Counted from the stretch's first letter, positions 1,782 to 25,008 are shown. The stretch: 64,000 bases of DNA from a bacterium (GCA_016290135.1 JAEESW010000009.1:3174-67173), one strand, 5' to 3'. Notes: a model not told the origin generated them from the sequence alone. Translations and numbers: made by a program.

Positions 1782-2933
1782 ATGGCTGGCAAGCAGGATT
1801 ATTATGAATTGCTCGGTGTGGCAAAGACCGCGGCACCAGAGGAGATCAAGAAAGCATACAAAAAAATGGCGATGAAGTATCATCCCGACAGAAATCCCGG
1901 CGATAAAGAGGCAGAGGAAAAGTTCAAAAAGGTGAATGAGGCTTACGAAGTCTTGTCAAACCCCGAAAAACGCCAGATCTACGACCAGTACGGTGAGGAC
2001 GGGCTTAAAGGCAGTTTCGGTGCGGGAGCTGAGGGAGCTGATTTCTCCGAAATGTTCAAAAACGCAGGTTTCGGCGGCGGCTTCAGCAATCTGGGCGATA
2101 TTTTCGACAGTATGTTCGGCGGCGGAGGAAGAGGCCGCGCGAGGAACATGCCGCAGCAGGGAACTGATCTGATCACGAAGATAATCGTTACGTTCAAGGA
2201 GTCCTATACCGGAACTTCAAAAGAAATCTCGTTCAACCGCTCTTCGTCATGCCAGTTCTGCAACGGAACGGGCGCAGAGTCGGGAAGTTCGCGCAAAGCG
2301 TGCCCGACCTGTAAAGGAAGCGGTCAGGTCAGAAGCGGAAACGGCTTCTTCTCGATCTCTCAGACTTGTCCGACATGTCACGGAGAAGGGTCTATTATCG
2401 AAAAACCGTGTACTCACTGCCACGGAACAGGATTCCTCAAAGAGACCAAGAAAGTCGAAGTCAAAGTTCCGGCCGGCATTGCCGACGGTATGCAGATCCG
2501 CGTTGCCGGAGAGGGAAACTCAGGGCTCAACGGCGGACCGAGAGGCGATGTGTACGTCGAGGTCAGGGTCAAGAGCGATGAACTTTTCCTGCGTGAAGGG
2601 AACGATATTTATGTCGAGATCCCGATAACTTACTCGCAGGCTGCACTCGGGGATAAGATCGAAGTCCCGACGATGGACGGAACTGTCGAGATGACTCTGC
2701 CGGCGGGAACTCAGCCCAACACGAAAATGCGGCTCAAAGACAAAGGTTTCCCCGATGTCCACGGCCGCGGCAAGGGCGTTCTTTATGTCATTTTCAAACT
2801 CGAAGTGCCGAGGAACCTTTCCGACGGACACAAAGAGGCGATCATGAAGCTCAAAGAGTTCGAAAAAGAGATCAAGGAGCGGCCGACTTTGAAGGATTAT
2901 CTTGAAAAAATCAAAAAATGGTTCGGTAAATAG
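1782..2933 (+). CDS. dnaJ: molecular chaperone DnaJ
   Basis: J-domain with HPD (KYHPDRNPGD); Gly/Phe-rich linker; four CxxCxGxG zinc-finger repeats; C-terminal client-binding domains. Confidence 0.95.
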   Translation: MAGKQDYYELLGVAKTAAPEEIKKAYKKMAMKYHPDRNPGDKEAEEKFKKVNEAYEVLSNPEKRQIYDQYGEDGLKGSFGAGAEGADFSEMFKNAGFGGGFSNLGDIFDSMFGGGGRGRARNMPQQGTDLITKIIVTFKESYTGTSKEISFNRSSSCQFCNGTGAESGSSRKACPTCKGSGQVRSGNGFFSISQTCPTCHGEGSIIEKPCTHCHGTGFLKETKKVEVKVPAGIADGMQIRVAGEGNSGLNGGPRGDVYVEVRVKSDELFLREGNDIYVEIPITYSQAALGDKIEVPTMDGTVEMTLPAGTQPNTKMRLKDKGFPDVHGRGKGVLYVIFKLEVPRNLSDGHKEAIMKLKEFEKEIKERPTLKDYLEKIKKWFGK

Positions 2934-3085
2934 TTCTCTTTTTCCGGGCTGTCGTGCTTGTAAGGAGCGCAGTCAGGTCTTTGCTTTATTAGAATATCAT
3001 ATAAATTTTCTTTAAAAACTTGCGGATTTCACTGTTTTATGGTAAAGGGCGGCGGCTTTTTTTAACAACTCTCAGGAGGTTTTTC

Positions 3086-3832
3086 ATGTCAGGCCACAAT
3101 AAGTGGAGCACGATCAAGCACAAAAAAGGTGCTGCAGATGCAAAAAGAGGCAAAATTTTTACGAAACTCATCAAAGAAATCACGATAGCTGCGAAAGGCG
3201 GCGGCGGAGACCCTGACGGTAACCCGCGTCTTAAAACCGCCATCCAGTCGGCGAAAGCGGCTAACATGCCTCTCGACAATATCACCCGTGCGATCAAAAA
3301 AGGAACCGGTGAACTTGAAGGTTCGAGCTACGAAGAGGCAACATACGAGGGATACGGTCCGGGCGGAGTTGCGGTCATGGTCGACTGCCTTACCGACAAC
3401 AAGAACAGAACTGTTTCCGAGATCAGAAGGATCTTCACGAAAGCCGGCGGCAATATGGGCAACAACGGCTGCGTAAACTGGATGTTCAGCCAGAAAGGCC
3501 AGATCATCATCCCGAAAGAGGGCGTTGACGAGGAAAAACTTATGGAAGACGCTCTTGAAGCCGGTGCTGAAGATGTCATCGACAACGACGAAGTTTGGGA
3601 AGTAAGGACAGAGATGGGCGATGTTTATGCCGTTTCCGGCGCGCTCACCGAAAAGGGATACCAGTTCGAAGAAGCGAAGATCGCACGTATCCCGCAGAAT
3701 TTCGTAAAAGTCGAAGGTAAAGTCGCTGAGCAGGTCCTCAAGCTCATGGAAGCATTCGATGACAGCGACGATGTTCAGGATGTCTATGCGAACTACGACA
3801 TAGATTTCAGCCAGCTGCCAGAGGAAGAATAG
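3086..3832 (+). CDS. yebC: YebC/PmpR family DNA-binding transcriptional regulator
   Basis: [26 protein letters not shown] signature; ATG at 3086 preceded by AGGAGG. The ORF-track start 3020 is an upstream extension. Confidence 0.9.
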
Positions 3833-3838
3833 TCTATC

Positions 3839-4318
3839 TTGGATAAACAAGGCTACATCATTTTAGGGATCGACCCCGGCAGCATCAAAACGGGTTACGG
3901 CCTGATAAATGCTGCCGGGCGTTCTTTTTTTCACATTGACAATGGTCTCATAATGCCGCCTAAAGGGCTCGATTTCAAAGAGAGGATCGGCTTCATCTTC
4001 CGCGGCGTATGCGACATTATGGACGAATTCAAGCCGAATGTGGTCGCTTTGGAAGACGTTTTCATCGCGAAAAACGCTCAGAGCGCACTGAAACTCGGTC
4101 ATGTCAGAGGAGCCGTCATGAGTGCCGCCGCGATCCACGGACTTCCCCTTTTCGAATATACTCCGACAAGGGTAAAACAATCGGTCACAGGCAACGGCAG
4201 AGCGGAAAAATTCCAGATCCAGGAGATGATAAAGATCCTTCTCAGGCTCAAGGAAGCTCCTTACGAAGACGCTGCAGACGCACTTGCAATAGCAATAACT
4301 CATGCATTTACGGTGTAA
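3839..4318 (+). CDS. ruvC: crossover junction endodeoxyribonuclease RuvC
   Basis: ILGIDPGS..TGYG N-terminal catalytic motif, about 159 aa. Alternative (TTG-type) start at 3839. Confidence 0.9.
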   Translation: MDKQGYIILGIDPGSIKTGYGLINAAGRSFFHIDNGLIMPPKGLDFKERIGFIFRGVCDIMDEFKPNVVALEDVFIAKNAQSALKLGHVRGAVMSAAAIHGLPLFEYTPTRVKQSVTGNGRAEKFQIQEMIKILLRLKEAPYEDAADALAIAITHAFTV

Positions 4319-4320
4319 AA

Positions 4321-4926
4321 ATGATAGGTTATCTTAAAGGAACAGTCGTTGCAAACGAAGACCGCGAACTTACGGTCCTCACCGAAGGCGGTGTCGGATA
4401 CGTTGTCGGCGTAACTCCGACTTTGACTGTCAAATATCCGGAAGGAGAGACAGTTTCGCTTTTCGTCCAGACTTTCGTCAGGGAAGACGCGATAGACCTT
4501 TACGGATTCGAGAGGAACGAGGAAAAACACCTTTTCAACATGCTGTGCGAAGTGAACAAGATCGGACCGAAAACAGCACTTTCGATCCTTGCGGCGGCTC
4601 CGATCGAAGAGATCGTTTCGGCGATACTTTCCGGCAACGCACAGTTCTTCAAGAAAATAAGCGGAGTCGGTGCGAAAACTGCCGAGAAGATCATCATCGA
4701 TCTGAAAGACAAGGCCGATAAATTCTCTGCAATTGCTGCCGGTTCTTCGGAAACGGCAAAGGTCGTTTCGACCGACAAGCAGATACGTGAAGCTGCTGAC
4801 GCGCTTGCCGCTCTGGGCTTCAACCCGCTTCAGATCAGGCATGCAATGGCAAAAATAGAGGATAAGGAATCGAAGAGAGCTGAAGAAATCATCAGAGAGG
4901 CTCTCAAAGTTATCAGAAACCTCTGA
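4321..4926 (+). CDS. ruvA: Holliday junction DNA helicase RuvA
   Basis: MIGYLKGTV... OB-fold N-terminus, HhH region ([22 protein letters not shown]), C-terminal RuvB-interaction domain. ATG at 4321 lies 3 nt after the ruvC stop. ORF-track 4009.. is an out-of-context upstream extension overlapping ruvC. Confidence 0.9.
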
Positions 4927-4939
4927 TCAGGTGAATGTC

Positions 4940-5959
4940 ATGAACGAAGAAAGATTGCTCAATTCGCAGGAACTTCCCGAAGATTCGTCGCTTGAAGGCG
5001 GGCTCAGACCTAAGAATCTAAGCGGCTACATCGGACAGAAAGCTGTCGTTGACAACGTGAAAATATTTATCGAAGCAGCAAAAAAGAACGGGCGTCCGCT
5101 TGATCACCTCCTTCTCGCAGGTCCTCCCGGACTCGGCAAAACCACTCTCAGCCAGATAATTGCCAATGAAATGGGGGTCGATATGTTCTCGACTTCAGGT
5201 CCTGTCATTGAGAAAAAGGGAGACCTTGCCGGTCTGCTCACTCCTTTGCAGGAAGGCGATGTCCTCTTTATCGACGAGATCCACCGCCTGAATCCGGCTG
5301 TTGAAGAGAGTCTTTACCCAGCCATGGAGGATTTCCGCTTCGATATCATGCTCGGACAGGGCGAGAATGCTAAAAGCGTGCCTCTTCCGCTGCAGCCGTT
5401 CACGCTTATCGGCGCGACAACAAAGACAGGCCTTCTTTCAAGCCCGCTGCGCGACAGATTCCAGATAGTTTTCAGAATGGATTATTACAATGTCGAAGAC
5501 CTTGAAACTATCGTCAAGCGCTCGGCAAAAGTTTTGGGTATAACAATTGATGATGCCGGAGCCCACGAAATAGCAAGACGTTCGCGCGGAACTCCGCGAA
5601 TCGCGAACAGGATCCTGAAGCGGGTCCGCGATTTCGCCCTTGTCAAAGGAAACGGAGACATCGACATCGCCATCGCGAGATATGCTCTCAACCAGATGGA
5701 AATCGACGAGGACGGTCTTGACCAGATGGACAGGACGATCCTTATGACGATAATCGAGTCTTTCCGCGGAGGACCTGTAGGAATCGAAGCGATCGCGGCA
5801 AGTGTCAGCGAGGAGAGACGCACTCTTGAGGATGTTTACGAACCTTACCTCATCAAATCCGGTTTTATCGCAAGGACCGCGAAAGGAAGAATGGTCACGA
5901 AAAAGACTTTGGACAAGTTCGGAATCAAGGCGAACGAAATACAGGGAGACCTTTTTTGA
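4940..5959 (+). CDS. ruvB: Holliday junction branch migration ATPase RuvB
   Basis: Walker [10 protein letters not shown]; Walker [10 protein letters not shown]; sensor and arginine-finger regions. ATG at 4940 (the ORF track uses GTG 4931). Confidence 0.95.
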
Positions 5960-12395: not shown

Positions 12396-14396
12396 ATGAA
12401 AGAAAAAAAGATAAAATTCATCTTCACGGGCGGCGGTAGCGGCGGTCATGTCAGCCCGGCTCTTGCAGTTGCGTCCGAACTCAAAAAAGTTCTCCCTGAA
12501 GCGGAGATAACCTACATCGGTGTCAAAAACAAAGCGGAAGCGCACATGGTCCCGAAAGTCGGGATTCCGCTTAAATTCGTGAAGAGCGCGCCTCTTCCGC
12601 AGGGAAAATCGCCTGTTAAGCTGCTGAAATTCGCAACGACTATGTTTTTCGGGCTTTCAAAAGCGGCTCTGATCCTGCTCAAAACAAGGCCTGCCGCTGT
12701 TTTTGCAACCGGCGGATTTGTAAGCGCCCCGACAGTTTTTGCCGCGTGGATCCTGCGCAAGGCGACCTTCGGACTTTTCAAGACGAAGATAATGATCCAC
12801 GAGTCGAATACCGATCTCGGCAAAATGAACAAAGCCGCTGCAAAGGCTGCCGACAAAGTTGCGGTGTCGTTCTCCGAAACGATGAGGCATCTGCCGAAAA
12901 ACAAAGGCTTTTTCTCTGGTTATCCGGTCAGAAGTTCGATCGCTCCGGAAGAAAGAAGCATCGCGAGAAAAGAGCTCGGTATCCCTGACAGCGCATTCGT
13001 GATATTCGCTTTCGGAGGCTCGCAGGGATCGCGCACCATAAACCGTGTCCTTGCAAATTCTGCAAAGAAACTTCTTGAAGATCCTGACACTTACATAATC
13101 CACGGAGCCGGGAGACCTTTCGGAAAAACCTACGAATACCACGGTTTCAACGATGTTTCCGAGATCCTCAAAAAGCAGAATTTGGGCGAAGCTGAAAAAA
13201 GATACCTTCTCCGCGATTTCATTGACAACATGGGGCTTTACTACGCTGCCTCTGATCTCCTTGTCATCAGGGCGGGAGCTGGTTCGATCGTTGAAGTGTG
13301 CCGTCAGGGCAAACCTTCCGTCATAATCCCGATAAGCAACATCGGGAACGATCACCAAATTGGTAACGCACGCTTTATCGAGCGTGCCGGGGCGGCAGCC
13401 GTTATATATGAGAGGACCGATCCTCTGAACGGGGTCGACATTGCGTTTGCCGATGCCGCGGAGTTCTGCGAAACAGTTTCGAGACTTAGGAACGACAGGC
13501 TTAAACTTGCCGAAATGTCGGAAGCGGCAAAGAACATTTTCCCGGGAAATCCGTCAGAAATAATCGTAAAAAATCTTCTCCATCTCTGTCGTCTCGGCGA
13601 AAAACCGGCTGAAGTAAAAGGGACCGAGTTTATGAACGACCGTGTTCTGGGGCTCAATTCGACAAGCCTTGAAAAATTCCTGCAAAAGACGAAGACCGGT
13701 GCTGAAAAACCGCTTGAAGCGGATGAAGTGAAGCTCATAAAAAACAAGATCGACATGCTTTTCTCGTCGCACAATCCAGTCATCAAGGCACGTGCCTGCC
13801 GGTCTTCGGGCATTCTGGGTTATTCTGAAGTCATCCCGCTCATAATCAGGTATGCGGCGGACAAAAACAGCGCGCCGTTCCTCAGCCGCGATGCTTTTTC
13901 GGCTTTGAAGCAGCTCTCGCTTGTCTGTGACACTGATAAGCGCGGAGATCTATGCGGCGCGATACTTTCAGGACTTGAAAACTCATACTATGAAACACGT
14001 TTCTCTGCTGAAAGATGCATCCCTGCTTTTGCCGGGCACTTCGGAATAAGCGACAAAGAACGCGAAAAATTCATGGATCTGCTCTTTAAGAACATGTCGG
14101 ATCACTGCTTTGAAGTTAGAGCCGATGCCGTTCTTGCGGCGGCTCAGATCTCGACCGACACCGAAAAACTGCTCGGACGCTTTTCGAAACTTTACTTCGA
14201 TGCTGTCTGGAAAGTCAGGATGGCGATACTTCAGGCTTTTGAGATCCTCATCAAGAGAGGCGTCCTCGACAAGAGCACAGCTGCATCGGAAATCGATAAG
14301 ATACTTATCACAAGCAACGGATACACGACTGAATACGAGCTCAAAAAAGAGTATAATTCCGTCATGGAACTTATTTCACAGGAGAAAAAATCATGA
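12396..14396 (+). CDS. murG: MurG-like undecaprenyl-PP-MurNAc-pentapeptide GlcNAc transferase with C-terminal HEAT-repeat domain
   Basis: MurG/GT28 motifs FTGGGSGGHV, IHESN, FGGSQGS, IPISNIGNDHQ..NA in the first ~400 aa. The last ~260 aa carry repeated xxxVRxxAxxAL HEAT/PBS-lyase-like units. Confidence 0.85.
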   Translation: MKEKKIKFIFTGGGSGGHVSPALAVASELKKVLPEAEITYIGVKNKAEAHMVPKVGIPLKFVKSAPLPQGKSPVKLLKFATTMFFGLSKAALILLKTRPAAVFATGGFVSAPTVFAAWILRKATFGLFKTKIMIHESNTDLGKMNKAAAKAADKVAVSFSETMRHLPKNKGFFSGYPVRSSIAPEERSIARKELGIPDSAFVIFAFGGSQGSRTINRVLANSAKKLLEDPDTYIIHGAGRPFGKTYEYHGFNDVSEILKKQNLGEAEKRYLLRDFIDNMGLYYAASDLLVIRAGAGSIVEVCRQGKPSVIIPISNIGNDHQIGNARFIERAGAAAVIYERTDPLNGVDIAFADAAEFCETVSRLRNDRLKLAEMSEAAKNIFPGNPSEIIVKNLLHLCRLGEKPAEVKGTEFMNDRVLGLNSTSLEKFLQKTKTGAEKPLEADEVKLIKNKIDMLFSSHNPVIKARACRSSGILGYSEVIPLIIRYAADKNSAPFLSRDAFSALKQLSLVCDTDKRGDLCGAILSGLENSYYETRFSAERCIPAFAGHFGISDKEREKFMDLLFKNMSDHCFEVRADAVLAAAQISTDTEKLLGRFSKLYFDAVWKVRMAILQAFEILIKRGVLDKSTAASEIDKILITSNGYTTEYELKKEYNSVMELISQEKKS

Positions 14397-15490
14397 TATA
14401 CGCGATCTTCAAATCGGTTTTCGGGGCCGGCGGCGGATTCGCAGTTTTCAAATACCTCTCATCGAGAACTCTGATCGCATTCGTAACGGCGTTTTTCCTT
14501 TCTCTGATCATCGGCAGACCGCTCATCAATGCGCTTTACAGACACGGTTTCCGCTCGTTTGAAAGAAGCTACGGCGAGATAAATTCGCAGAAAAAAACGG
14601 GGACTCCGATGCTGGGCGGTATACTGATCTTCATCACCGGGATAGGCAGTGCGCTGCTCTGGTGCGACCTCGCCAATCCGTTTATCTGGGCGCTGCTTGC
14701 GAGTGCAGTGTGGTTTGCCCTTTTCGGAGCGATAGATGACTACAAAAAGATCAAAGGGCGTGATGCCGACGAAGGGCTTTCCCGCTTTGCGAAATACATG
14801 ATCCAGATACTTTTCGGCGTTCTGCTCGCGGTCTTTGTCCTTACACCTGCGATATCTCCGCTCCCGGCTGAAGTTGCAAACTCTTTTCAGATCCCGTTTT
14901 TCAAAGGATTCATCTTCAGTTCGACTGTTCTCACGGCGCTTTGGATAGTTTTCATCATCGTTTACTCTGCAAACGCGGTCAATTTTGCCGACGGCATGGA
15001 CGGGCTCACGATAGTTCCTTCGGTCTTTGTCTTTATAGTTCTCGGCGTTTTTGCCTACATCATCGGCAACAAGATCCAGGCGCAGCACCTGCTTTACGAA
15101 TATATCCCTGGAAGCGGTGAGATCGCGGTCTTCTGCGGCGCAATAGTCGGTGCGGGGATCGGATTTTTGTGGTTCAACTCGCATCCGGCTGAAGTTTTCA
15201 TGGGCGACATGGGGAGCCTTTTCCTCGGCGGGACTATGGGAACGGCGGCGGTCCTCATCAGGCAGGAAGTGATTTTCATAATCGCGGGAGCGATCTTTGT
15301 AATTGAGATAACCTCGACTTTCGTTCAGGAAAATATCGGTTTCAAAATGCACAGACGTATTCTTTACCGTGCGCCGCTGCATCACCATTACCAGCATCAG
15401 GGAATGGCGGAGGCGAAGATCGTAACAAGGTTCTGGATCGTAAGCGCCATCATGGCGGCATTGGCACTTATCACCATTAAATTCAGGTAG
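14393..15490 (+). CDS. mraY: phospho-N-acetylmuramoyl-pentapeptide transferase (MraY family, GT4)
   Basis: DDYKK; NAVNFADGMDGL; LHHHYQ motifs; about 10 TM segments. ATGA overlap with murG. Confidence 0.85.
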   Translation: MIYAIFKSVFGAGGGFAVFKYLSSRTLIAFVTAFFLSLIIGRPLINALYRHGFRSFERSYGEINSQKKTGTPMLGGILIFITGIGSALLWCDLANPFIWALLASAVWFALFGAIDDYKKIKGRDADEGLSRFAKYMIQILFGVLLAVFVLTPAISPLPAEVANSFQIPFFKGFIFSSTVLTALWIVFIIVYSANAVNFADGMDGLTIVPSVFVFIVLGVFAYIIGNKIQAQHLLYEYIPGSGEIAVFCGAIVGAGIGFLWFNSHPAEVFMGDMGSLFLGGTMGTAAVLIRQEVIFIIAGAIFVIEITSTFVQENIGFKMHRRILYRAPLHHHYQHQGMAEAKIVTRFWIVSAIMAALALITIKFR

Positions 15491-17191: not shown

Positions 17192-18364
17192 ATGTCCGAA
17201 AAATCGCTTTATCTCACCAAAATCCAGCTTCGAGAGGAGCTCAAAAGATGCCTCAACTGCAAAACCCAGCCCTGCATGACTGCGTGCCCGGTAAGCTGCA
17301 ATCCGCGTGAGTTCATCCAGTATTCAAAGGCTGAGGAGTGGGACGAGGCAGTGGCGGCTATCACGCGTGTCAACCCGATGGGACAGACCTGCGGCCTCAT
17401 CTGCCCTGACAAATTCTGCATGAAAGCCTGCACACGTTCCGGAATCGACTTCCCGGTCAACATTCCGAGAGTCCAGGCGACGATCCTGCACAATTTCAGG
17501 GTCGATCATCCCGAAAAAGTCTCGCTTCCGCACAACGGGCACACTGTTGCCATCGTCGGAGCGGGGCCTGCCGGGCTTGCGGCGACTGCGCTTCTTGTCA
17601 AAAACGGTTTCAAAGTTACGATCTATGAAGGTCGTCACGAAATCGGCGGCGCGCTTTGCATGATCCCCGAAAACAGGCTTCCGCACGAAGTAATTGAGCG
17701 CGATTACGAGTTTATCAGCAACAACGATCTGGTTACGCTGAAACTCAACGCGAAGGTGAGCCACACAGTCGAGCTTCTCAACCGTTTCGACGCCGTTATC
17801 GTCTCTACCGGCGAGCCGAACTGCCTTGAACTCAAGATCCCGGGAGAAGAACTCAGCGTTTCATACACCGATTTTCTCTACCATCCCGAAGATTTCCAGA
17901 CGAACGGTCATGTCGCGGTCATCGGAGGCGGAAACGTCGCGGCAGACTGCGCTGCAACAGCAATGAGAAACGGCGCGGCATCGGTCGAAATGTTCGTCAG
18001 ACGCCGCATTTCGGACATGCGCATATCGAAAGCGGAATACCTTGACCTCGTCAATCATAAAATCGACCTCTGCGGCATGACAAGCCCCGAAAAAATAGAA
18101 AAAATCGGGAACAAACTCTGTCTCACCGTGAGACGCAACTTCTTTGACGGCGAAAAATGGGTCCCGCTTGAAAATTCGTCAGTCTCGCTTCCTTACTTTG
18201 ACCTCATTATCCGCGCAGTCGGAAGCCGCTCCGACACGAAGAGCGACGACAACGCGAAACTAGTATACGCAGGCGACTGCAAAACAGGCGGTTCCACGAT
18301 CGTCGAAGCAATTTCATCAGGCCGCAAGGCAGCTCAGGAAATCATCAGGCTGTTTGAAGAATAG
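17192..18364 (+). CDS. glutamate synthase small-subunit-like (GltD/PreT family) FAD/NAD(P)-binding oxidoreductase
   Basis: N-terminal Fe-S Cys cluster (CLNCKTQPCMTACP..CGLICP..CMKAC), dinucleotide fold VAIVGAGPAGLAAT and a second GG motif. Shorter than canonical GltD; no large subunit nearby. Confidence 0.75.
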   Translation: MSEKSLYLTKIQLREELKRCLNCKTQPCMTACPVSCNPREFIQYSKAEEWDEAVAAITRVNPMGQTCGLICPDKFCMKACTRSGIDFPVNIPRVQATILHNFRVDHPEKVSLPHNGHTVAIVGAGPAGLAATALLVKNGFKVTIYEGRHEIGGALCMIPENRLPHEVIERDYEFISNNDLVTLKLNAKVSHTVELLNRFDAVIVSTGEPNCLELKIPGEELSVSYTDFLYHPEDFQTNGHVAVIGGGNVAADCAATAMRNGAASVEMFVRRRISDMRISKAEYLDLVNHKIDLCGMTSPEKIEKIGNKLCLTVRRNFFDGEKWVPLENSSVSLPYFDLIIRAVGSRSDTKSDDNAKLVYAGDCKTGGSTIVEAISSGRKAAQEIIRLFEE

Positions 18365-18379: not shown

Positions 18380-21300
18380 TTATTTGCAAGTCATAATGTC
18401 AAGAATGACCTGATCGGTCTTCTCCATTCCTTCTGAAGCGACAGTCGCAAGATTTTTGATGGTTTTTTCGATGTCGCGCTCGATTATTCCATCGGTTTCG
18501 GAGATCTCGATGTTTTCGATCGCTAAAAGTGCGCTTTGAAGTGCCGCGTTGATCGTAGTTGAAACTTTGAGTGCGCATCCCGCCTTAGCGCCGTCGCATA
18601 TCATGCCGGAGATGTTTCCTATCATGTTTTTGATTGCGTAGTTTATCTGCGGAAGTCCGCCGTCCATGAGATATACCATGCCGCATGCAGCGCCTGTGGA
18701 AGCCGTTACTGTGCCGCAGAGGGCCGAAAGTTTCGACATGAATTCTTTGAGGTGTATCGCGATCAGGTTGCCGAGATAAAGCGCGCGGATGAGTTTTTCC
18801 TCGCTTGAACCGAGCCTTTCTGCAGTCGCGACTATCGGCATCATTACGGTTATTCCCTGGTTTCCGCTGCCTGAATTGCTCATGACGGGAAGCGTGCAGC
18901 CTGCCATTCTCGCATCACTTGCCGCAGCAGTGAGAGCCATCGCGTAGTTTGCAAGATCGTCGCACAAAATCCCTTTTTTGACGTTGAGGCGCAGAGTTTT
19001 GCCGACACGGAGCCCGTAGTCGCCGCTAAGACCTTCAAGGGCTATCCTTTTGTTCATTTCGGCACCCTCAAGAACATAACGGATCTTGTCTAAAGGCACT
19101 TTGTTGATGAAATTCCAGATCCCTTCGACAGTCATGTGGTGCTCCTCTGTCTTTTTGCTCTCCTCCTTGTCGAACGAAAGTGCGCTGCACGATTTTTGCG
19201 AAACGATTTTTCCGTTGAGTTCGGTGAGGACTATGTTTGTGTGGCTTCCGCAGATAATCGTCCTTGCACAGTTTTTGCCGCTGAAGCACGCCGCTTCGAT
19301 GTAGAGTTTGTCGACCTGCTCCTTGAGCGTGATCGAGATCTTTCCGTCTTTCACCATCTTTTTGGCTTCTTCGATCTCTTCGGGAGTGACGCCGCTCAGC
19401 ACTTCAAGTTCTTTTGTGGGATCTCCGCCTGTGATACCCAGCGCAGCCGCGATCGGAAGGCCGACCATGCCTGTTCCCGGGATGCCGACGCCGAGGCCGT
19501 TTTTCATGATGTTTCCGCTGAGAGCGATCTCCGCTCTTTTGATATGTCCGCCAAGAAGTTTCGTCGAAGTCGCCGCAGCGAGCGCCACCGCGATAGGTTC
19601 GGTGCAGCCGAGTGCCGGAACGACCTCGCTGTTGAAAGCGTTGATGTAAAGCTGGTAATCCATCTCTTCCTCTTTTCTATTTTCAACTACCTTAAAATCG
19701 GTGAAAACGCGGTATTCGTAAGCCTTGAGCTGTATGAAAAAGCCGTGCTCGAAGATATCTCCGGTGCTGATCGTGTATTCCTTGCCTGAGATCAGCTCTT
19801 TGAACTGCAGATAAGTCCCTTTTTCATTTCTGAGTCCGAGTGCAAAATCGAGATTTATCCGTTTAAGTTCATTGCTTCCTTTGTCGAGCCATGCACAGCT
19901 CTGCTTGATCCAGCCTGATGTTTCGGCAAATTTGTTGTGGTAGAAAACAAGCACTTTGCTCTCTCCCCAGCCGTTCGAATATGCGAAAACGTTTTCATCG
20001 ACCGAGCCGTCGGATCTGTAGAAATCGTAGAAGTGGAAGTCATCGACGTGGGCAAAAAGGCGGCGCAGATGCAGAAGCGGGAAAATTTCGCGCTCGTGCC
20101 GCTCTACAAGTGCCTGATTGACGGTCTCGTTTTTGTAGGCGCGTCGGTATTCCATGCCGTATTTTTCGGAAAATCCTTCGATCTGGCCGTGTCCGAACAT
20201 CGGAAGTCCCGGCATCGTTATCATAAGAAGGGTGACTCCGAAATATTTGTCGTTGTCTCCGAACTGCGCGACAGCCGTCTCCTCATCGGGATTGTTGAGG
20301 AAGTTGACGTATCTTTCGAGAATGTGCGGGTCGAATTCGAGAACGCTTTTTACAGACTGTCTGTATTTCGCGTTTTCCTCGTTTTTCATAAAGTTCATGA
20401 ATGCGCTGTTGTAGACGCGGTGCATTCCCAAAGTCCGCACGAAATAGCCTTCCATAAGCCAGAAAGCCTCGGCCAAAAGCAGCGTTTCGGGTGCATCGAG
20501 AGCGACTCTGTCAACGACTTCGCGCCAGAATTCCTTCGGAAAAAACTTGTTGAATTCTTCGGTCGTAAGTCCGTGTTCGGCGCGTGATGCAATGTCTCCG
20601 CCGCTTCCCGGTTCGGGGAACCAGAGCCTGTGATAGTGCCTTTTTGCAAGCGTCATCGCTGCATCGAACCTGATCACCGGGAAGTTTTTCGCGATTTTTA
20701 TGATCGTCTGAATCACCTGTTCCCTGACATCGGCACGCATATAGTTGAGCTGCGCCGTATCGTTCCACGGCATGCAGGTCCCGTCGTTTCCGTGATAGAT
20801 GTAGTCGGTTTTTCCTGTCCTGAAATCGACCCGTTTGAAAGTTACCGCCGCATCGCTTTTCGAATAGTAGTGGTCTTCGATATAAATCCCGATATTCGGG
20901 TCGCTCGAAAGGTTTTCGCCGTTATATGTGTAGGCAGGGAAGGGCGGCTCGTCCGCCGAAATGAACCATTCTGGATGCTCCGAGATCCACTTTGAATCGA
21001 TCGCCGTGTGGTTGGGGACCATGTCGCTCGCAAGTCTGATCCCGTGTCTCCACGCCCTTTCGCGGAGATTCTGCATCGCCGCTTCGCCGCCGAGTTCAGA
21101 GGCTATTTCGTAGTCGTAAAGCGAATACGCACTTGCCGCAGCTTCCGGGTTTCCCATTATCTGCTTGATTCGTTTCGATGCTTTGCTGCGCTCCCACAAA
21201 CCGATCAGCCAGAGTGCCGTAAAGCCGCGTCTGGACAGGGTTTCAAGCTCTTCGTCGGGGATCCTGTCAAGAGTATGGATGTCGGCCGAATACTGCTTTG

Positions 21301-22231
21301 AAAGCTGGTCGAGCCATACGAAAACATTTTTCGCGATCATCACGACGCGCGGCATCCAGAACGAATCTTCCGAAAAATTCTCGTTTTCAGGGTCGCCTTC
21401 GCCCCAGCCGGCAAGAGCATCTTTTGTCAGTGCCGGAAAATCGCCGCCTCCGCCCGTCCCGAAGACAGGTTTTGTCTCCTCTTTTATGATATCGGCAGAA
21501 AGAAGGAGCATTTTCGAAAAACGCGCCGAGATCTTTACTCCCCAGTTTTTGCGGATAAATTCAAGCTGCCCCGCAAGAGAATCAGGACTTGCCTTGAAAG
21601 GCGCGCGCAGAAGGTCGAGAACTGAAATCTTTTCGCCGCCGAGACCGATCTTCGGACTGCTTTCGAAAAAGTTTTCGGCTATATCGAAAAATTTTCCGTA
21701 AGCAGGATTTTTTTCAAGAACCTCATCTCCGAAAAGTTCGTCAAATTCGGCAAAAGCCGGATTTTCATTGGCGATTTTTAGCAGGATAAGCTCTTCGAGT
21801 TCTGTCAGTTTATTCTGAATTCCGTCCGTTGAAGCGGCAAAAAACTCGGCTGCGCTCATTCCGCCTGTCATCGTCTGCTGAGTCGGAAATTCCTTGATAA
21901 AATCGATGATCAAAGCCTTTGTAGTGTCGCTACCGAGCTCATGCTCAGCCTTTTCAAACAGTTTTTTTAAGAAATCGGGAAAAATTTCAGTCCTGTAAAG
22001 ATGAAAAATGAAGTGCCCGATCTCGTCGATAAGCCCCATTGCATAAAGATTTCCCGGAGTTATGTGCTTCCCGTTTTTTTCCGCGGCATACTGCAAATTA
22101 AGTTTGTGCGCGAAATCCTTCGCAGCTGCAAAATCGGCGAAAACAACATTCCCCGAAATCGAAAAAAGTTCTTTTGAAAGCTGGAAACGCTCTCTGGAAG
22201 CGCGTTTTACGTGAAAATGATTCGTATGCAT
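18380..22231 (-). CDS. fusion ORF: GH13-like alpha-glucan hydrolase/transferase (N-terminal ~856 aa) + YhaM/CdsB (UPF0597) L-cysteine desulfidase-like domain (C-terminal 427 aa)
   Basis: GH13 regions I-IV: DMVPNH; IRFDAAMTLAKRH; AEAFW; FLNNPDEE. C-terminal domain aligns throughout with E. coli YhaM: PALGCTEPIA, NGLGVGIPGTGMVGLPIAAALG, CGSHTNIV, MSNSGSGNQGIT, KLSALCG, MICDGAKAGCALKVS. One continuous 1283-aa frame; internal Met at 19661..19663 is preceded by GAGGAAGAG. Confidence 0.8.
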   Translation of the reverse strand: MHTNHFHVKRASRERFQLSKELFSISGNVVFADFAAAKDFAHKLNLQYAAEKNGKHITPGNLYAMGLIDEIGHFIFHLYRTEIFPDFLKKLFEKAEHELGSDTTKALIIDFIKEFPTQQTMTGGMSAAEFFAASTDGIQNKLTELEELILLKIANENPAFAEFDELFGDEVLEKNPAYGKFFDIAENFFESSPKIGLGGEKISVLDLLRAPFKASPDSLAGQLEFIRKNWGVKISARFSKMLLLSADIIKEETKPVFGTGGGGDFPALTKDALAGWGEGDPENENFSEDSFWMPRVVMIAKNVFVWLDQLSKQYSADIHTLDRIPDEELETLSRRGFTALWLIGLWERSKASKRIKQIMGNPEAAASAYSLYDYEIASELGGEAAMQNLRERAWRHGIRLASDMVPNHTAIDSKWISEHPEWFISADEPPFPAYTYNGENLSSDPNIGIYIEDHYYSKSDAAVTFKRVDFRTGKTDYIYHGNDGTCMPWNDTAQLNYMRADVREQVIQTIIKIAKNFPVIRFDAAMTLAKRHYHRLWFPEPGSGGDIASRAEHGLTTEEFNKFFPKEFWREVVDRVALDAPETLLLAEAFWLMEGYFVRTLGMHRVYNSAFMNFMKNEENAKYRQSVKSVLEFDPHILERYVNFLNNPDEETAVAQFGDNDKYFGVTLLMITMPGLPMFGHGQIEGFSEKYGMEYRRAYKNETVNQALVERHEREIFPLLHLRRLFAHVDDFHFYDFYRSDGSVDENVFAYSNGWGESKVLVFYHNKFAETSGWIKQSCAWLDKGSNELKRINLDFALGLRNEKGTYLQFKELISGKEYTISTGDIFEHGFFIQLKAYEYRVFTDFKVVENRKEEEMDYQLYINAFNSEVVPALGCTEPIAVALAAATSTKLLGGHIKRAEIALSGNIMKNGLGVGIPGTGMVGLPIAAALGITGGDPTKELEVLSGVTPEEIEEAKKMVKDGKISITLKEQVDKLYIEAACFSGKNCARTIICGSHTNIVLTELNGKIVSQKSCSALSFDKEESKKTEEHHMTVEGIWNFINKVPLDKIRYVLEGAEMNKRIALEGLSGDYGLRVGKTLRLNVKKGILCDDLANYAMALTAAASDARMAGCTLPVMSNSGSGNQGITVMMPIVATAERLGSSEEKLIRALYLGNLIAIHLKEFMSKLSALCGTVTASTGAACGMVYLMDGGLPQINYAIKNMIGNISGMICDGAKAGCALKVSTTINAALQSALLAIENIEISETDGIIERDIEKTIKNLATVASEGMEKTDQVILDIMTCK

Positions 22232-22257
22232 GTCTATATAGTCAATGGTTGTCAGTC

Positions 22258-22695
22258 TTATGAAAGTGCCTTCTTTACAAGTCCGCTTGCGGTCTTTCCG
22301 TCAAACTGACCGTCATATTTTTTCTTGAGTTCCGCCATGACAGCGCCCATCTGACGCGGCGATTTGTCGGGAAGAGTTGCAACGATCTCTTCAATAACTT
22401 TCGCAAGTTCTTCTTCAGAAAGCTGCTTCGGAAGAAGCGATTCAAGTATCTCTTTTTCGCGGAGAGTTTCTGTTTTGTCCTTGCCCATTTCGTCCATCAG
22501 AGTAAGAGTTTCGTTCACGTTTTTGAGGAATTTCTTGATCATCGCGATAGTTTCTGCATCGGTCGTTTCGCGGTTTCCGTCGTTTTTACCGACCATTACA
22601 GCCTCTGCGACTAAAGTCGAAAGGAGATTTCCTTTGACCGTATCTTTCTCAAGTTTCGCTTTCATCATCATTTTTCTAAGTTCGCCAAGCAGCAT
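22258..22695 (-). CDS. GatB/YqeY domain protein
   Basis: MLLGELRKMMMKAKLEKD..LKKKYDGQFDGKTASGLVKKAL typical YqeY. Start at the Met preceded by GGGAGG (the ORF-track start 22719 is upstream). Confidence 0.8.
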   Translation of the reverse strand: MLLGELRKMMMKAKLEKDTVKGNLLSTLVAEAVMVGKNDGNRETTDAETIAMIKKFLKNVNETLTLMDEMGKDKTETLREKEILESLLPKQLSEEELAKVIEEIVATLPDKSPRQMGAVMAELKKKYDGQFDGKTASGLVKKALS

Positions 22696-22788
22696 TTTGA
22701 CCTCCCTGTTTAAAACCAATTAAAAAAGAACGAAAAAGTATAGTTGCAACTTTTTTGATGTCAAAAATAGAGCCGCTGTGGCATTAAG

Positions 22789-24460: not shown

Positions 24461-24739
24461 TTACTTGAACAACTCCGAATGTGTCCCCGCACGATAAAGG
24501 ACAAGAACAAGAACCTCATTTTGGATTTCGTATATCAAAAGCCAGTCAGGTTCGATGTGGCATTCACGTGTCCCTTTGTAGTTGCCAGAAAGTTCGTGGT
24601 CACGGTATTTCGCATCAAGTGTGCCGCCTTCGGCAAGAATATTCACGACTTCGAAGAGTTTATCCAAATTCCTGTTCTGTTTTTTCGCCAGTTTCAGATC
24701 TTTCTTGAACTGGTTCGTGAATTTGACTTCGTATTTCAT
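24461..24739 (-). CDS. yafQ: type II toxin, RelE/YafQ family mRNA interferase
   Basis: 92 aa, KFTNQFKKDLKLAKKQNRNL...ELSGNYKGTRECHIEPDWLLIY pattern of the YafQ/RelE fold. Overlaps upstream antitoxin by 4 nt. Confidence 0.8.
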   Translation of the reverse strand: MKYEVKFTNQFKKDLKLAKKQNRNLDKLFEVVNILAEGGTLDAKYRDHELSGNYKGTRECHIEPDWLLIYEIQNEVLVLVLYRAGTHSELFK

Positions 24740-25008
24740 GCTTCCAATGCCGCTCTCAGTTCATCCATGCTGGAATAGCCTTTAACGCTGCTGTCGGCTG
24801 CGATGCGTCTGCCTTCCTCGATAGCGGCTGCTGTAACATCGTTCGGTTCGTTCAGCTTCAGCGCGAACGGGATCCCGTGTTCACGGATTGTTGTCCGCAG
24901 AAACATATTGATTGCGGTTGTCATGTTAAGTCCGAGTTCGGAAAAAATCCTGTCAGCTTCTTCCTTTACGGCTTTGTCAGTCCTGATGTTTAAATTTGTT
25001 GCAGTCAT
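24736..25008 (-). CDS. dinJ: type II antitoxin, RelB/DinJ family
   Basis: 90 aa, LNIRTDKAVKEEADRIFSELGLNMTTAINMFLRTTI ribbon-helix-helix antitoxin; cognate of the downstream YafQ-like toxin. Confidence 0.8.
   Translation of the reverse strand: MTATNLNIRTDKAVKEEADRIFSELGLNMTTAINMFLRTTIREHGIPFALKLNEPNDVTAAAIEEGRRIAADSSVKGYSSMDELRAALEA

Follow-up and report, generated by a model that had tools for sequence, protein, structure and literature searches.

A 64,000-nucleotide stretch of bacterial DNA (GCA_016290135.1 JAEESW010000009.1:3174-67173; the whole stretch is referred to as the window) carries on its minus strand a gene that joins a glycoside hydrolase family 13 (GH13)-like enzyme and a YhaM/CdsB-type L-cysteine desulfidase in a single open reading frame (ORF). 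The ORF runs uninterrupted from 22231 to 18383 (1283 codons) and ends with a TAA stop at 18380-18382. Pfam analysis identified an Alpha-amylase domain (PF00128) at residues 329-707, with 41 bits against a cut-off of 22 (E 2e-10), and an SDH_alpha domain (PF03313) at residues 940-1278, with 220 bits (E 5e-65). A preliminary description of this DNA had proposed a genuine in-frame fusion of 1283 amino acids (aa) with four GH13 catalytic regions and the Cys-containing segments of CdsB. The fusion held, with the same frame in eight full-length loci. Every quoted motif was found: DMVPNH at residue 403, IRFDAA at 520, AEAFW at 587, and FLNNPDEE at 644 in the GH13 part, which was a very remote member of its family, and GCTEP at 875, CGSHTN at 994, SNSGSGNQG at 1118, LSALCG at 1168, and ICDGAKAGC at 1211 in the CdsB part. 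The junction reads ...FTDFKVV-ENRKEEE-MDYQ. Near it, in the last GH13 codons and the linker, stop codons were present in both off-frames, one of which had been pointed out before. A tryptic peptide spanning the junction of the fusion would be, for example, EEEMDYQLYINAFNSEVVPALGCTEPIAVALAAATSTK, with variants ...INEDNEVDMDFQLYIDAFNSEVVPALGCTEPIAVALAAATSAK. Within the 64-kb window, each module was found only once. The features are collected in Table 1.

Table 1. Coordinates of the fusion gene, its parts and other genes in the window (residues numbered along the fusion protein; AF2, AlphaFold 2; pLDDT, predicted local distance difference test; omega, dN/dS)
Feature	Position	Strand	Basis or remark
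Whole fusion ORF, 1283 codons + TAA	18380..22231	-	Uninterrupted orthologous ORFs of 1274-1287 aa in L001-L004, L006, L009, L010, L011
N-terminal helical domain (residues 1-252), then disordered loop (~253-295)	21476..22231	-	AF2
GH13-type (beta/alpha)8 catalytic barrel, residues ~296-720	20072..21346	-	PF00128, AF2, Foldseek; omega 0.05
Region I, D403..N407-H408	21008-21025	-	Invariant in 121 family members
Region II, nucleophile R521-F-D523	20663-20671	-	Invariant in 121 family members
Region III, acid/base E588	20468-20470	-	Invariant in 121 family members
Region IV, N647-P648-D649	20285-20293	-	Invariant in 121 family members
GH13 domain-C-like beta-sandwich, residues 733-850, ending in conserved ...AYEYRVFTDFKVV	19682..20035	-	AF2 strands, pLDDT 90-98
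Acidic linker ENRKEEE, residues 850-856	19664..19684	-	7-10 aa in orthologs; pLDDT below 50
Invariant GAGG, candidate retained Shine-Dalgarno, 5 nt upstream of internal ATG	19669..19672	-	9/9 orthologs
Internal ATG, Met857, candidate former cdsB start codon	19661..19663	-	Invariant; aligns with start Met of standalone CdsB
CyuA/CdsB/YhaM-type L-cysteine desulfidase module, complete, residues 857-1283	18383..19663	-	PF03313, PDB 9he0/9fsl; omega 0.07
Catalytic C876, E878	19598-19606	-	Invariant in 10 fused proteins
Cluster ligands C1172; C1212; C1219	18716-18718; 18596-18598; 18575-18577	-	Invariant in 10 fused proteins
T1174, optional fourth-ligand position (MmCyuA Cys289)	18710-18712	-	Thr in 10/10 fused
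yqeY, upstream neighbor	22258..22719	-	PF09424; also directly upstream of the unfused gene in L012, L014, L015
YafQ-family toxin + RelB antitoxin	24461-25008	-	PF15738, E 3e-37; PF04221, E 9e-14
GltD/dihydropyrimidine-dehydrogenase-like Fe-S flavoprotein gene	17192-18364	+	Fer4_20 + Pyr_redox_2
MurG-like glycosyltransferase	12396-14396	+	GT28 N- + C-terminal domains
GT4 (MraY/WecA-type) gene after MurG-like gene	14393-15490		

When 5.8 billion protein clusters were searched, nine of those returned consisted of full-length fused proteins (P0001-P0009). These proteins were 1274-1287 aa long, with 66-92% identity at 100% query coverage, and each contained both Pfam domains. Their sources were ENA, JGI, Logan, and NCBI, and one of them bore the JGI label 'L-cysteine desulfidase/glycosidase'. 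A scan of one genome per GTDB species detected the fusion gene in 11 metagenome-assembled genomes (MAGs; L001-L011), which originated from yak, goat, water buffalo, red deer, reindeer, UBA assemblies, and other sources and were labeled UBP6 (UBA1177, UBA1209) or 'uncultured Spirochaetales'. When the orthologs were compared for fused versus separate genes, the relatives were not all separate, and the frame was continuous in 8/8 loci holding the whole gene. The incomplete loci were cut by contig ends (L005 and L008) or contained a masked run (L007).

Synonymous divergence (dS) among the orthologs was 0.3-1.0, and that of L009 was 1.4-2.5. At dS 0.3-1.0, the median ratio of nonsynonymous to synonymous divergence (dN/dS, omega) stood at 0.117 in the N-terminal domain, 0.048 in the GH13 core, and 0.067 in the CdsB module. 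Strong purifying selection acts on every part (omega 0.05-0.12), and the least conserved one is the N-terminal domain (omega 0.12; 42.5% identity to L009). The linker was 7, 8, 9, or 10 aa long depending on the lineage, and every indel consisted of whole codons. A frameshift in the linker would leave two separate genes because it would at once meet a stop. The fusion is a real gene and no sequencing artefact.

The GH13-like part (residues 1-856) was modeled using AlphaFold 2. The model (pLDDT 85.8) consisted of a helical domain, a disordered loop, a barrel, and a C-terminal beta-sandwich. The N-terminal domain was all-helical, with pLDDT mostly 85-97, and had no Pfam match; the loop at residues 255-290 fell below 50-65. 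A Foldseek comparison with the PDB gave 598 matches at E<=1e-3; 50/50 of the matches listed were GH13 enzymes, and the best E value was 1.8e-14. The part has the same barrel and domain C as TVAII and neopullulanase (1jf6, 1j0h), Thermotoga AmyB (4gkl), TreS (4lxf, 5jy7), and GlgE (3zss), as well as the same catalytic Asp/Glu/Asp and region I His. E values to these enzymes were about 1e-14, but identity was only 12-15%. Differences from characterized GH13 enzymes are that the region IV His is replaced by Pro and that an extra 290-aa helical domain is present at the N-terminus.

The features that define GH13 were then found as follows. The Pfam profile, the barrel with domain C, and the Asp/Glu/Asp triad were all present; by motif and alignment, the catalytic D523, E588, and D649 were invariant in 121 members. 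Region IV was aligned with the NHD of 4gkl. The subsite -1 histidines were not complete, with His408 of region I present and the region IV His changed to Pro648 (NNPD) in all 121 members. These motifs and the predicted fold mark the GH13 part as a genuine GH13 lineage (clan GH-H), though an atypical one. No NCBIfam equivalog reached its cut-off for this part. Searches for a subfamily with NCBIfam, PDB sequences, and Foldseek gave generic, equidistant matches only. As all GH13 subfamilies are about equally distant, no specificity is transferable.

The next-best homologs of the N-terminal part were proteins of about 1050-1250 aa that matched only residues 1 to ~850 (P0010-P0120). They belong to an uncharacterized 'alpha-amylase family glycosyl hydrolase' family (~1150-1240 aa), with 52-66% identity over this range where the alignment covered 66-68% of the query; a small number of local alignments that ran further were at 49-50%. 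The N-terminal helical domain, the barrel, domain C, and the invariant motifs including NNPDE are common to both, whereas their ~300-aa helical tail is replaced by CdsB in the fusion. The MAG labels of these relatives included Chloroflexota, Spirochaetia, Calditrichia, and others. Together with the window sequence (19664-22231, minus strand), the GH13-like family has ~150 invariant positions, a ~250-aa N-terminal helical domain, and NNPDE instead of NHD. It is very large and apparently uncharacterized.

The C-terminal 427 aa were aligned with the L-cysteine desulfidase of Methanococcus maripaludis, MmCyuA (PDB 9he0/9fsl), from query residues 8-425 to chain residues 13-394 (E 1.3e-32). The homology along the whole YhaM domain claimed in the preliminary description is thus an end-to-end alignment with MmCyuA. 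MmCyuA is a tight homodimer with 3680 A2 buried (PMC12647591). Its [4Fe-4S] cluster is held by C287, C329, and C336, and a variant of the optional fourth ligand, C289A, retains activity (PMC12647591). C23 and E25 are essential and mark off desulfidases from SdaA/B serine dehydratases (PMC12647591). In the alignment, C876 and E878 were the equivalents of Cys23 and Glu25 (GCTE), and C1172, C1212, and C1219 were those of C287, C329, and C336. The latter three cysteines were present in >=128/129 aligned sequences. At the fourth-ligand position, Thr occurred only in the fused clade; 84 of the 129 aligned sequences had Cys and 25 had Val. Thr1174 would not be disabling because MmCyuA C289A stays active.

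The CdsB module therefore shares with the CyuA/CdsB/YhaM family (UPF0597; MmCyuA) full-length homology, the catalytic Cys and Glu of GCTE, and the three [4Fe-4S] cysteines; from its sequence, it is complete, with every known essential residue. Its anaerobic animal-gut host also fits the distribution of the CyuA family. The difference is its size and position. The described members, such as E. coli CyuA (PMC9040844) and C. difficile CdsB (PMC5767170), are standalone proteins, and the usual size is ~400-440 aa, whereas here 856 residues are attached and only 19 residues lie upstream of the catalytic Cys within the module. A further difference is the Thr at the optional fourth-ligand position. 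The 2025 paper on CyuA structure and evolution makes no mention of fusions (PMC12647591).

The two modules were also modeled together using AlphaFold 2 (residues 84-1283). The pLDDT values were mostly 80-95 in the modules and below 50 in the linker. The predicted template modeling score (pTM) was 0.50, compared with 0.67 for the GH13 part alone, and no rigid interface between the modules was predicted in this model. As judged from pLDDT and pTM only, the protein would consist of two well-folded modules on a flexible tether.

The short linker before the internal ATG has an unusual pattern of conservation. GAGG (-9 to -6) was its sole invariant run in 9/9 orthologs, the rest being hypervariable. 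Codon -3 was GAG in 9/9 orthologs, and codon -2 was GAA, GTT, or GAT, with G as the first base throughout. Of the all-Glu columns in the nine orthologs, only 3/69 were GAG throughout, and 3 invariant GAGG 4-mers occurred in 3867 aligned nucleotides (nt). The Shine-Dalgarno (SD)-like element that had been noticed before this ATG was thus correctly recognized, and GAGG-N5-ATG is invariant in all nine orthologs. In this genome, SD sites were found at 26/45 crude gene starts versus 26/344 internal in-frame ATGs. Standalone cdsB genes have an AGGAG-type SD at similar spacing, and the leader of one of them (L017), when read in frame, gives LKEMEM, compared with RKEEEM in the window. This likeness and the SD at similar spacing suggest that the 3' part of the linker is a translated former cdsB leader.

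The start of the fusion gene itself was also inspected (22232-22257, minus strand, in the window; position ~5975-6000 in L001-L011). No SD was found there in the window or L001, a weak one was found in L003 and L011, and GGAGG was found in L002 and L010; L009 apparently has a TTG start. The initiation signals at the 5' end were much less conserved than the internal GAGG. The internal GAGG-N5-ATG is probably still used, and free CdsB would then be made beside the fusion protein.

Comparison with unfused relatives indicated how the fusion may have arisen. The closest unfused relatives of the GH13-like gene encode about 1150-1180 aa and lie in a yqeY-linked locus; those with yqeY (L012, L014, and L015) were 63-65% identical. 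yqeY lies directly upstream in both, which makes the fusion gene and the unfused ~1150-1180-aa gene positional orthologs. yqeY and the GH13-like gene form a conserved pair in the window and these three relatives. Homology to the unfused proteins stops right after FxDFxEV. Past this domain-C end (...AYxYxVFxDFxEV, with conserved FxDFxEV), the unfused relatives continue with the ~300-aa helical tail, which had no meaningful Pfam match (E<=1) or PDB sequence match. In the fusion, the tail is absent and the CdsB module is in its place. The closest standalone CdsB proteins (P0122-P0133) were 428-430 aa long with 71-74% identity, and standalone cdsB genes sat in unrelated neighborhoods, for example beside rnc and GDPD in L016. 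These results ruled out read-through of adjacent genes by stop loss; cdsB moved into the locus, as the tail is present in unfused relatives and cdsB lies in unrelated contexts. The history of two adjacent genes implied in the preliminary description was not borne out, since the ancestral GH13-like gene ended in another ~300-aa domain and cdsB was not its neighbor.

Neighbor-joining (NJ) trees were constructed for both halves. The fused proteins were monophyletic in 76/100 (GH13) and 100/100 (CdsB) bootstraps, and in each tree they were sister to unfused relatives. The single fused clade in both trees indicated that the fusion occurred once and was then inherited vertically. Horizontal transfer of the CdsB module from a remote source was unsupported; its sister clade mirrors that of the GH13 part. 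Query residues 600-1283 were also searched with HMMER against 1.84 billion 50%-identity representatives. Among the best 150 of 5459 matches, the junction was spanned by P0009 alone, the representative of this clade, and the other 149 were one-sided; nearly all CdsB-side matches listed were 416-459 aa. Among the matches listed, the architecture is confined to this clade, and it is a new domain architecture from two known families.

Some relatives had odd lengths. P0353 (1680 aa) and P0334 (1345 aa) were unusually long, and one GH13-like member had a ~1260-aa N-terminal extension. Longer CdsB homologs also appeared among these proteins, P0298 (564 aa) and P0279 (512 aa), one with a 136-aa N-terminal extension. 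All four may be other architectures or gene-call artefacts.

We propose the following course of events. In the common ancestor of this rumen-associated, uncultured lineage, a cytoplasmic GH13-like gene of ~1150-1180 aa would have been rearranged so that its codon ~849 met the 5' leader of cdsB/cyuA. The break on the GH13 side would lie exactly at the end of the domain-C beta-sandwich. A complete cdsB/cyuA would have been brought in from elsewhere in the genome, with deletion of the ancestral ~300-aa helical C-terminal domain, and the former leader with its SD core would now be translated as a short acidic disordered linker. The product would be a full-length ~145-kDa bifunctional polypeptide, an alpha-glucan-type glycosidase/transferase and a [4Fe-4S] L-cysteine desulfidase, the latter predicted to convert cysteine to pyruvate, NH3, and H2S. 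That this polypeptide is made and bifunctional is what we infer. The two modules would fold and work independently of each other, connected by a flexible tether. As CyuA is an obligate homodimer, the fusion would dimerize the GH13 part via the CyuA module, possibly standing in for the role of the lost tail. The invariant GAGG-N5-ATG would work as an internal start, by which the same mRNA would also give free CdsB. A bifunctional polypeptide with independent tethered modules, dimerization by CyuA, and internally initiated free CdsB is the most economical mechanism. As a whole, a genuine, old, and selectively maintained fusion that arose by a tail swap, with a bifunctional tethered product and an internal cdsB start, is in our judgment a highly probable explanation and the best one. 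A further step is more tentative, and we give it only a minor chance: the gene may have two products, a ~145-kDa CyuA-dimerized fusion and a free ~46-kDa CdsB, and the latter could pair with the fused module in heterodimers and adjust the oligomeric state or activity of the glycosidase to cysteine/Fe-S status.

A comparable arrangement is known. In TreS-maltokinase (TreS-Pep2/Mak), a GH13 enzyme is joined C-terminally to its pathway partner, and both fusions and complexes occur; the M. smegmatis complex 5jy7 was among the Foldseek fold matches. Both systems have a GH13 catalytic unit with a second complete enzyme at the C-terminus. However, the TreS-Mak partners catalyze consecutive steps, whereas no pathway connects the two activities here.

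Several other explanations were weighed. The preliminary description had offered the alternative that a stop was lost or mis-sequenced between two ordinary genes. In that case, the ORF would be an artefact or a very recent stop loss, and GH13 and cdsB would really be adjacent genes; the off-frame stops just before the SD and ATG fit this, as a single indel would give two genes. It has next to no chance of being right. The ORF was unbroken across 8 full-length loci that differ in host and study and by dS 0.3-2.5, the uninterrupted frame extended to independent MAGs down to 66% identity, and the linker indels were invariably whole codons. Sequencing or assembly error was ruled out by the same ORF across independent divergent MAGs, as the divergence between assemblies excludes a systematic error common to all. 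Moreover, the unfused relatives carry the ~300-aa tail rather than an adjacent cdsB. Another explanation accepts the gene as real and regards the fusion only as a genetic vehicle, in which CdsB is made solely from the internal SD and ATG, GH13 works alone, and the covalent link is neutral. The invariant GAGG-N5-ATG, the lack of an SD at the gene's own start in the window and L001, the disordered linker without a predicted rigid interface, and a link without metabolic logic are all in line with it. However, a neutral link would tolerate the easily reached linker stops, whereas at least three independent length changes were all in frame and no lineage had split the gene over dS above 1. In addition, the fusion protein would unavoidably be produced, because ribosomes translating the GH13 part must continue into CdsB. 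We therefore consider this explanation unlikely. The maintained frame argues, with modest weight given ~four independent lineages, that the covalent link may not be merely tolerated.

The CdsB module might instead have been recruited for a non-metabolic role, as a dimerization scaffold or an Fe-S/cysteine/redox sensor replacing the helical tail. In favor of this, the module takes over from the ancestral C-terminal domain precisely at the domain boundary, MmCyuA forms a tight dimer, and the Thr at the fourth-ligand position is in 10/10 fused proteins and restricted to that clade. However, the desulfidase-specific Cys and Glu and the three cluster cysteines are all invariant, an omega of 0.07 is what a working enzyme typically shows, and the active MmCyuA C289A means that Thr1174 need not disable it. 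This role is improbable for the module. Metabolic coupling or channelling, in which a glycoconjugate with sulfur or cysteine is the substrate of the GH13-like module and the product is handed on to the desulfidase, is very improbable. The family-wide change of the region IV His to Pro suggests a non-canonical -1 subsite, but the unfused members, without CdsB, all have it too. Relatives showed no conserved operon link of the two genes, no fixed interface was predicted, and the idea is pure speculation.

Some points weigh against the explanation that we consider best. The neighborhood of the fusion gene offers no link between the two activities; the neighbors encode an isocitrate/isopropylmalate dehydrogenase, the GltD-like Fe-S flavoprotein, YqeY, an S58 peptidase, a hexapeptide acyltransferase, and the YafQ/RelB pair. 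Among the literature matches listed, no paper named both 'cysteine desulfidase' and 'alpha-amylase'. The earlier remark that the combination has no obvious metabolic logic still stands, as neither gene context nor literature gave a link. With only ~four independent lineages among the nine orthologs, the statistics on GAGG and in-frame indels are modest. The monophyly of the GH13 part had just 76% NJ bootstrap. Finally, as the GH13 part is remote from solved enzymes in identity and has the His-to-Pro change in region IV, its substrate could be a non-alpha-glucan.

Other genes around the fusion gene showed additional features. The Fe-S flavoprotein gene is convergent and downstream, and its end is 16 nt from the fusion-gene stop. 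At ~2.2 kb upstream of the fusion gene, the YafQ and RelB genes overlap and form a type II toxin-antitoxin pair. The MurG-like gene has a ~290-aa C-terminal extension with weak HEAT-repeat matches. An extra ORF of 775-818 aa lies upstream of the fusion gene in L001, L007, and L010 (~2500-5500), behind the S58 peptidase gene in the first two of these, and the window lacks it. Synteny upstream of yqeY therefore varies among close relatives.

The fusion is a clade-restricted architecture in which a covalent link between two unrelated cytoplasmic enzymes has persisted through deep divergence (dS above 1). The combination is surprising, its conservation is well supported, and it involves no new biochemical principle. 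It allows a clean test of whether 'Rosetta-stone' fusions are always a sign of a functional link, and it offers a candidate case of a former ribosome-binding site that survives within the coding sequence of a linker. For the GH13-like family, the fusion draws attention to an uncharacterized group of proteins (roughly 1050-1250 aa, NNPDE region IV) and suggests that their C-terminal domain is dispensable or replaceable. For rumen biology, it points to a putative cysteine-to-sulfide enzyme of the uncultured phylum UBP6, for which the name 'Ca. Asafiota' is proposed.

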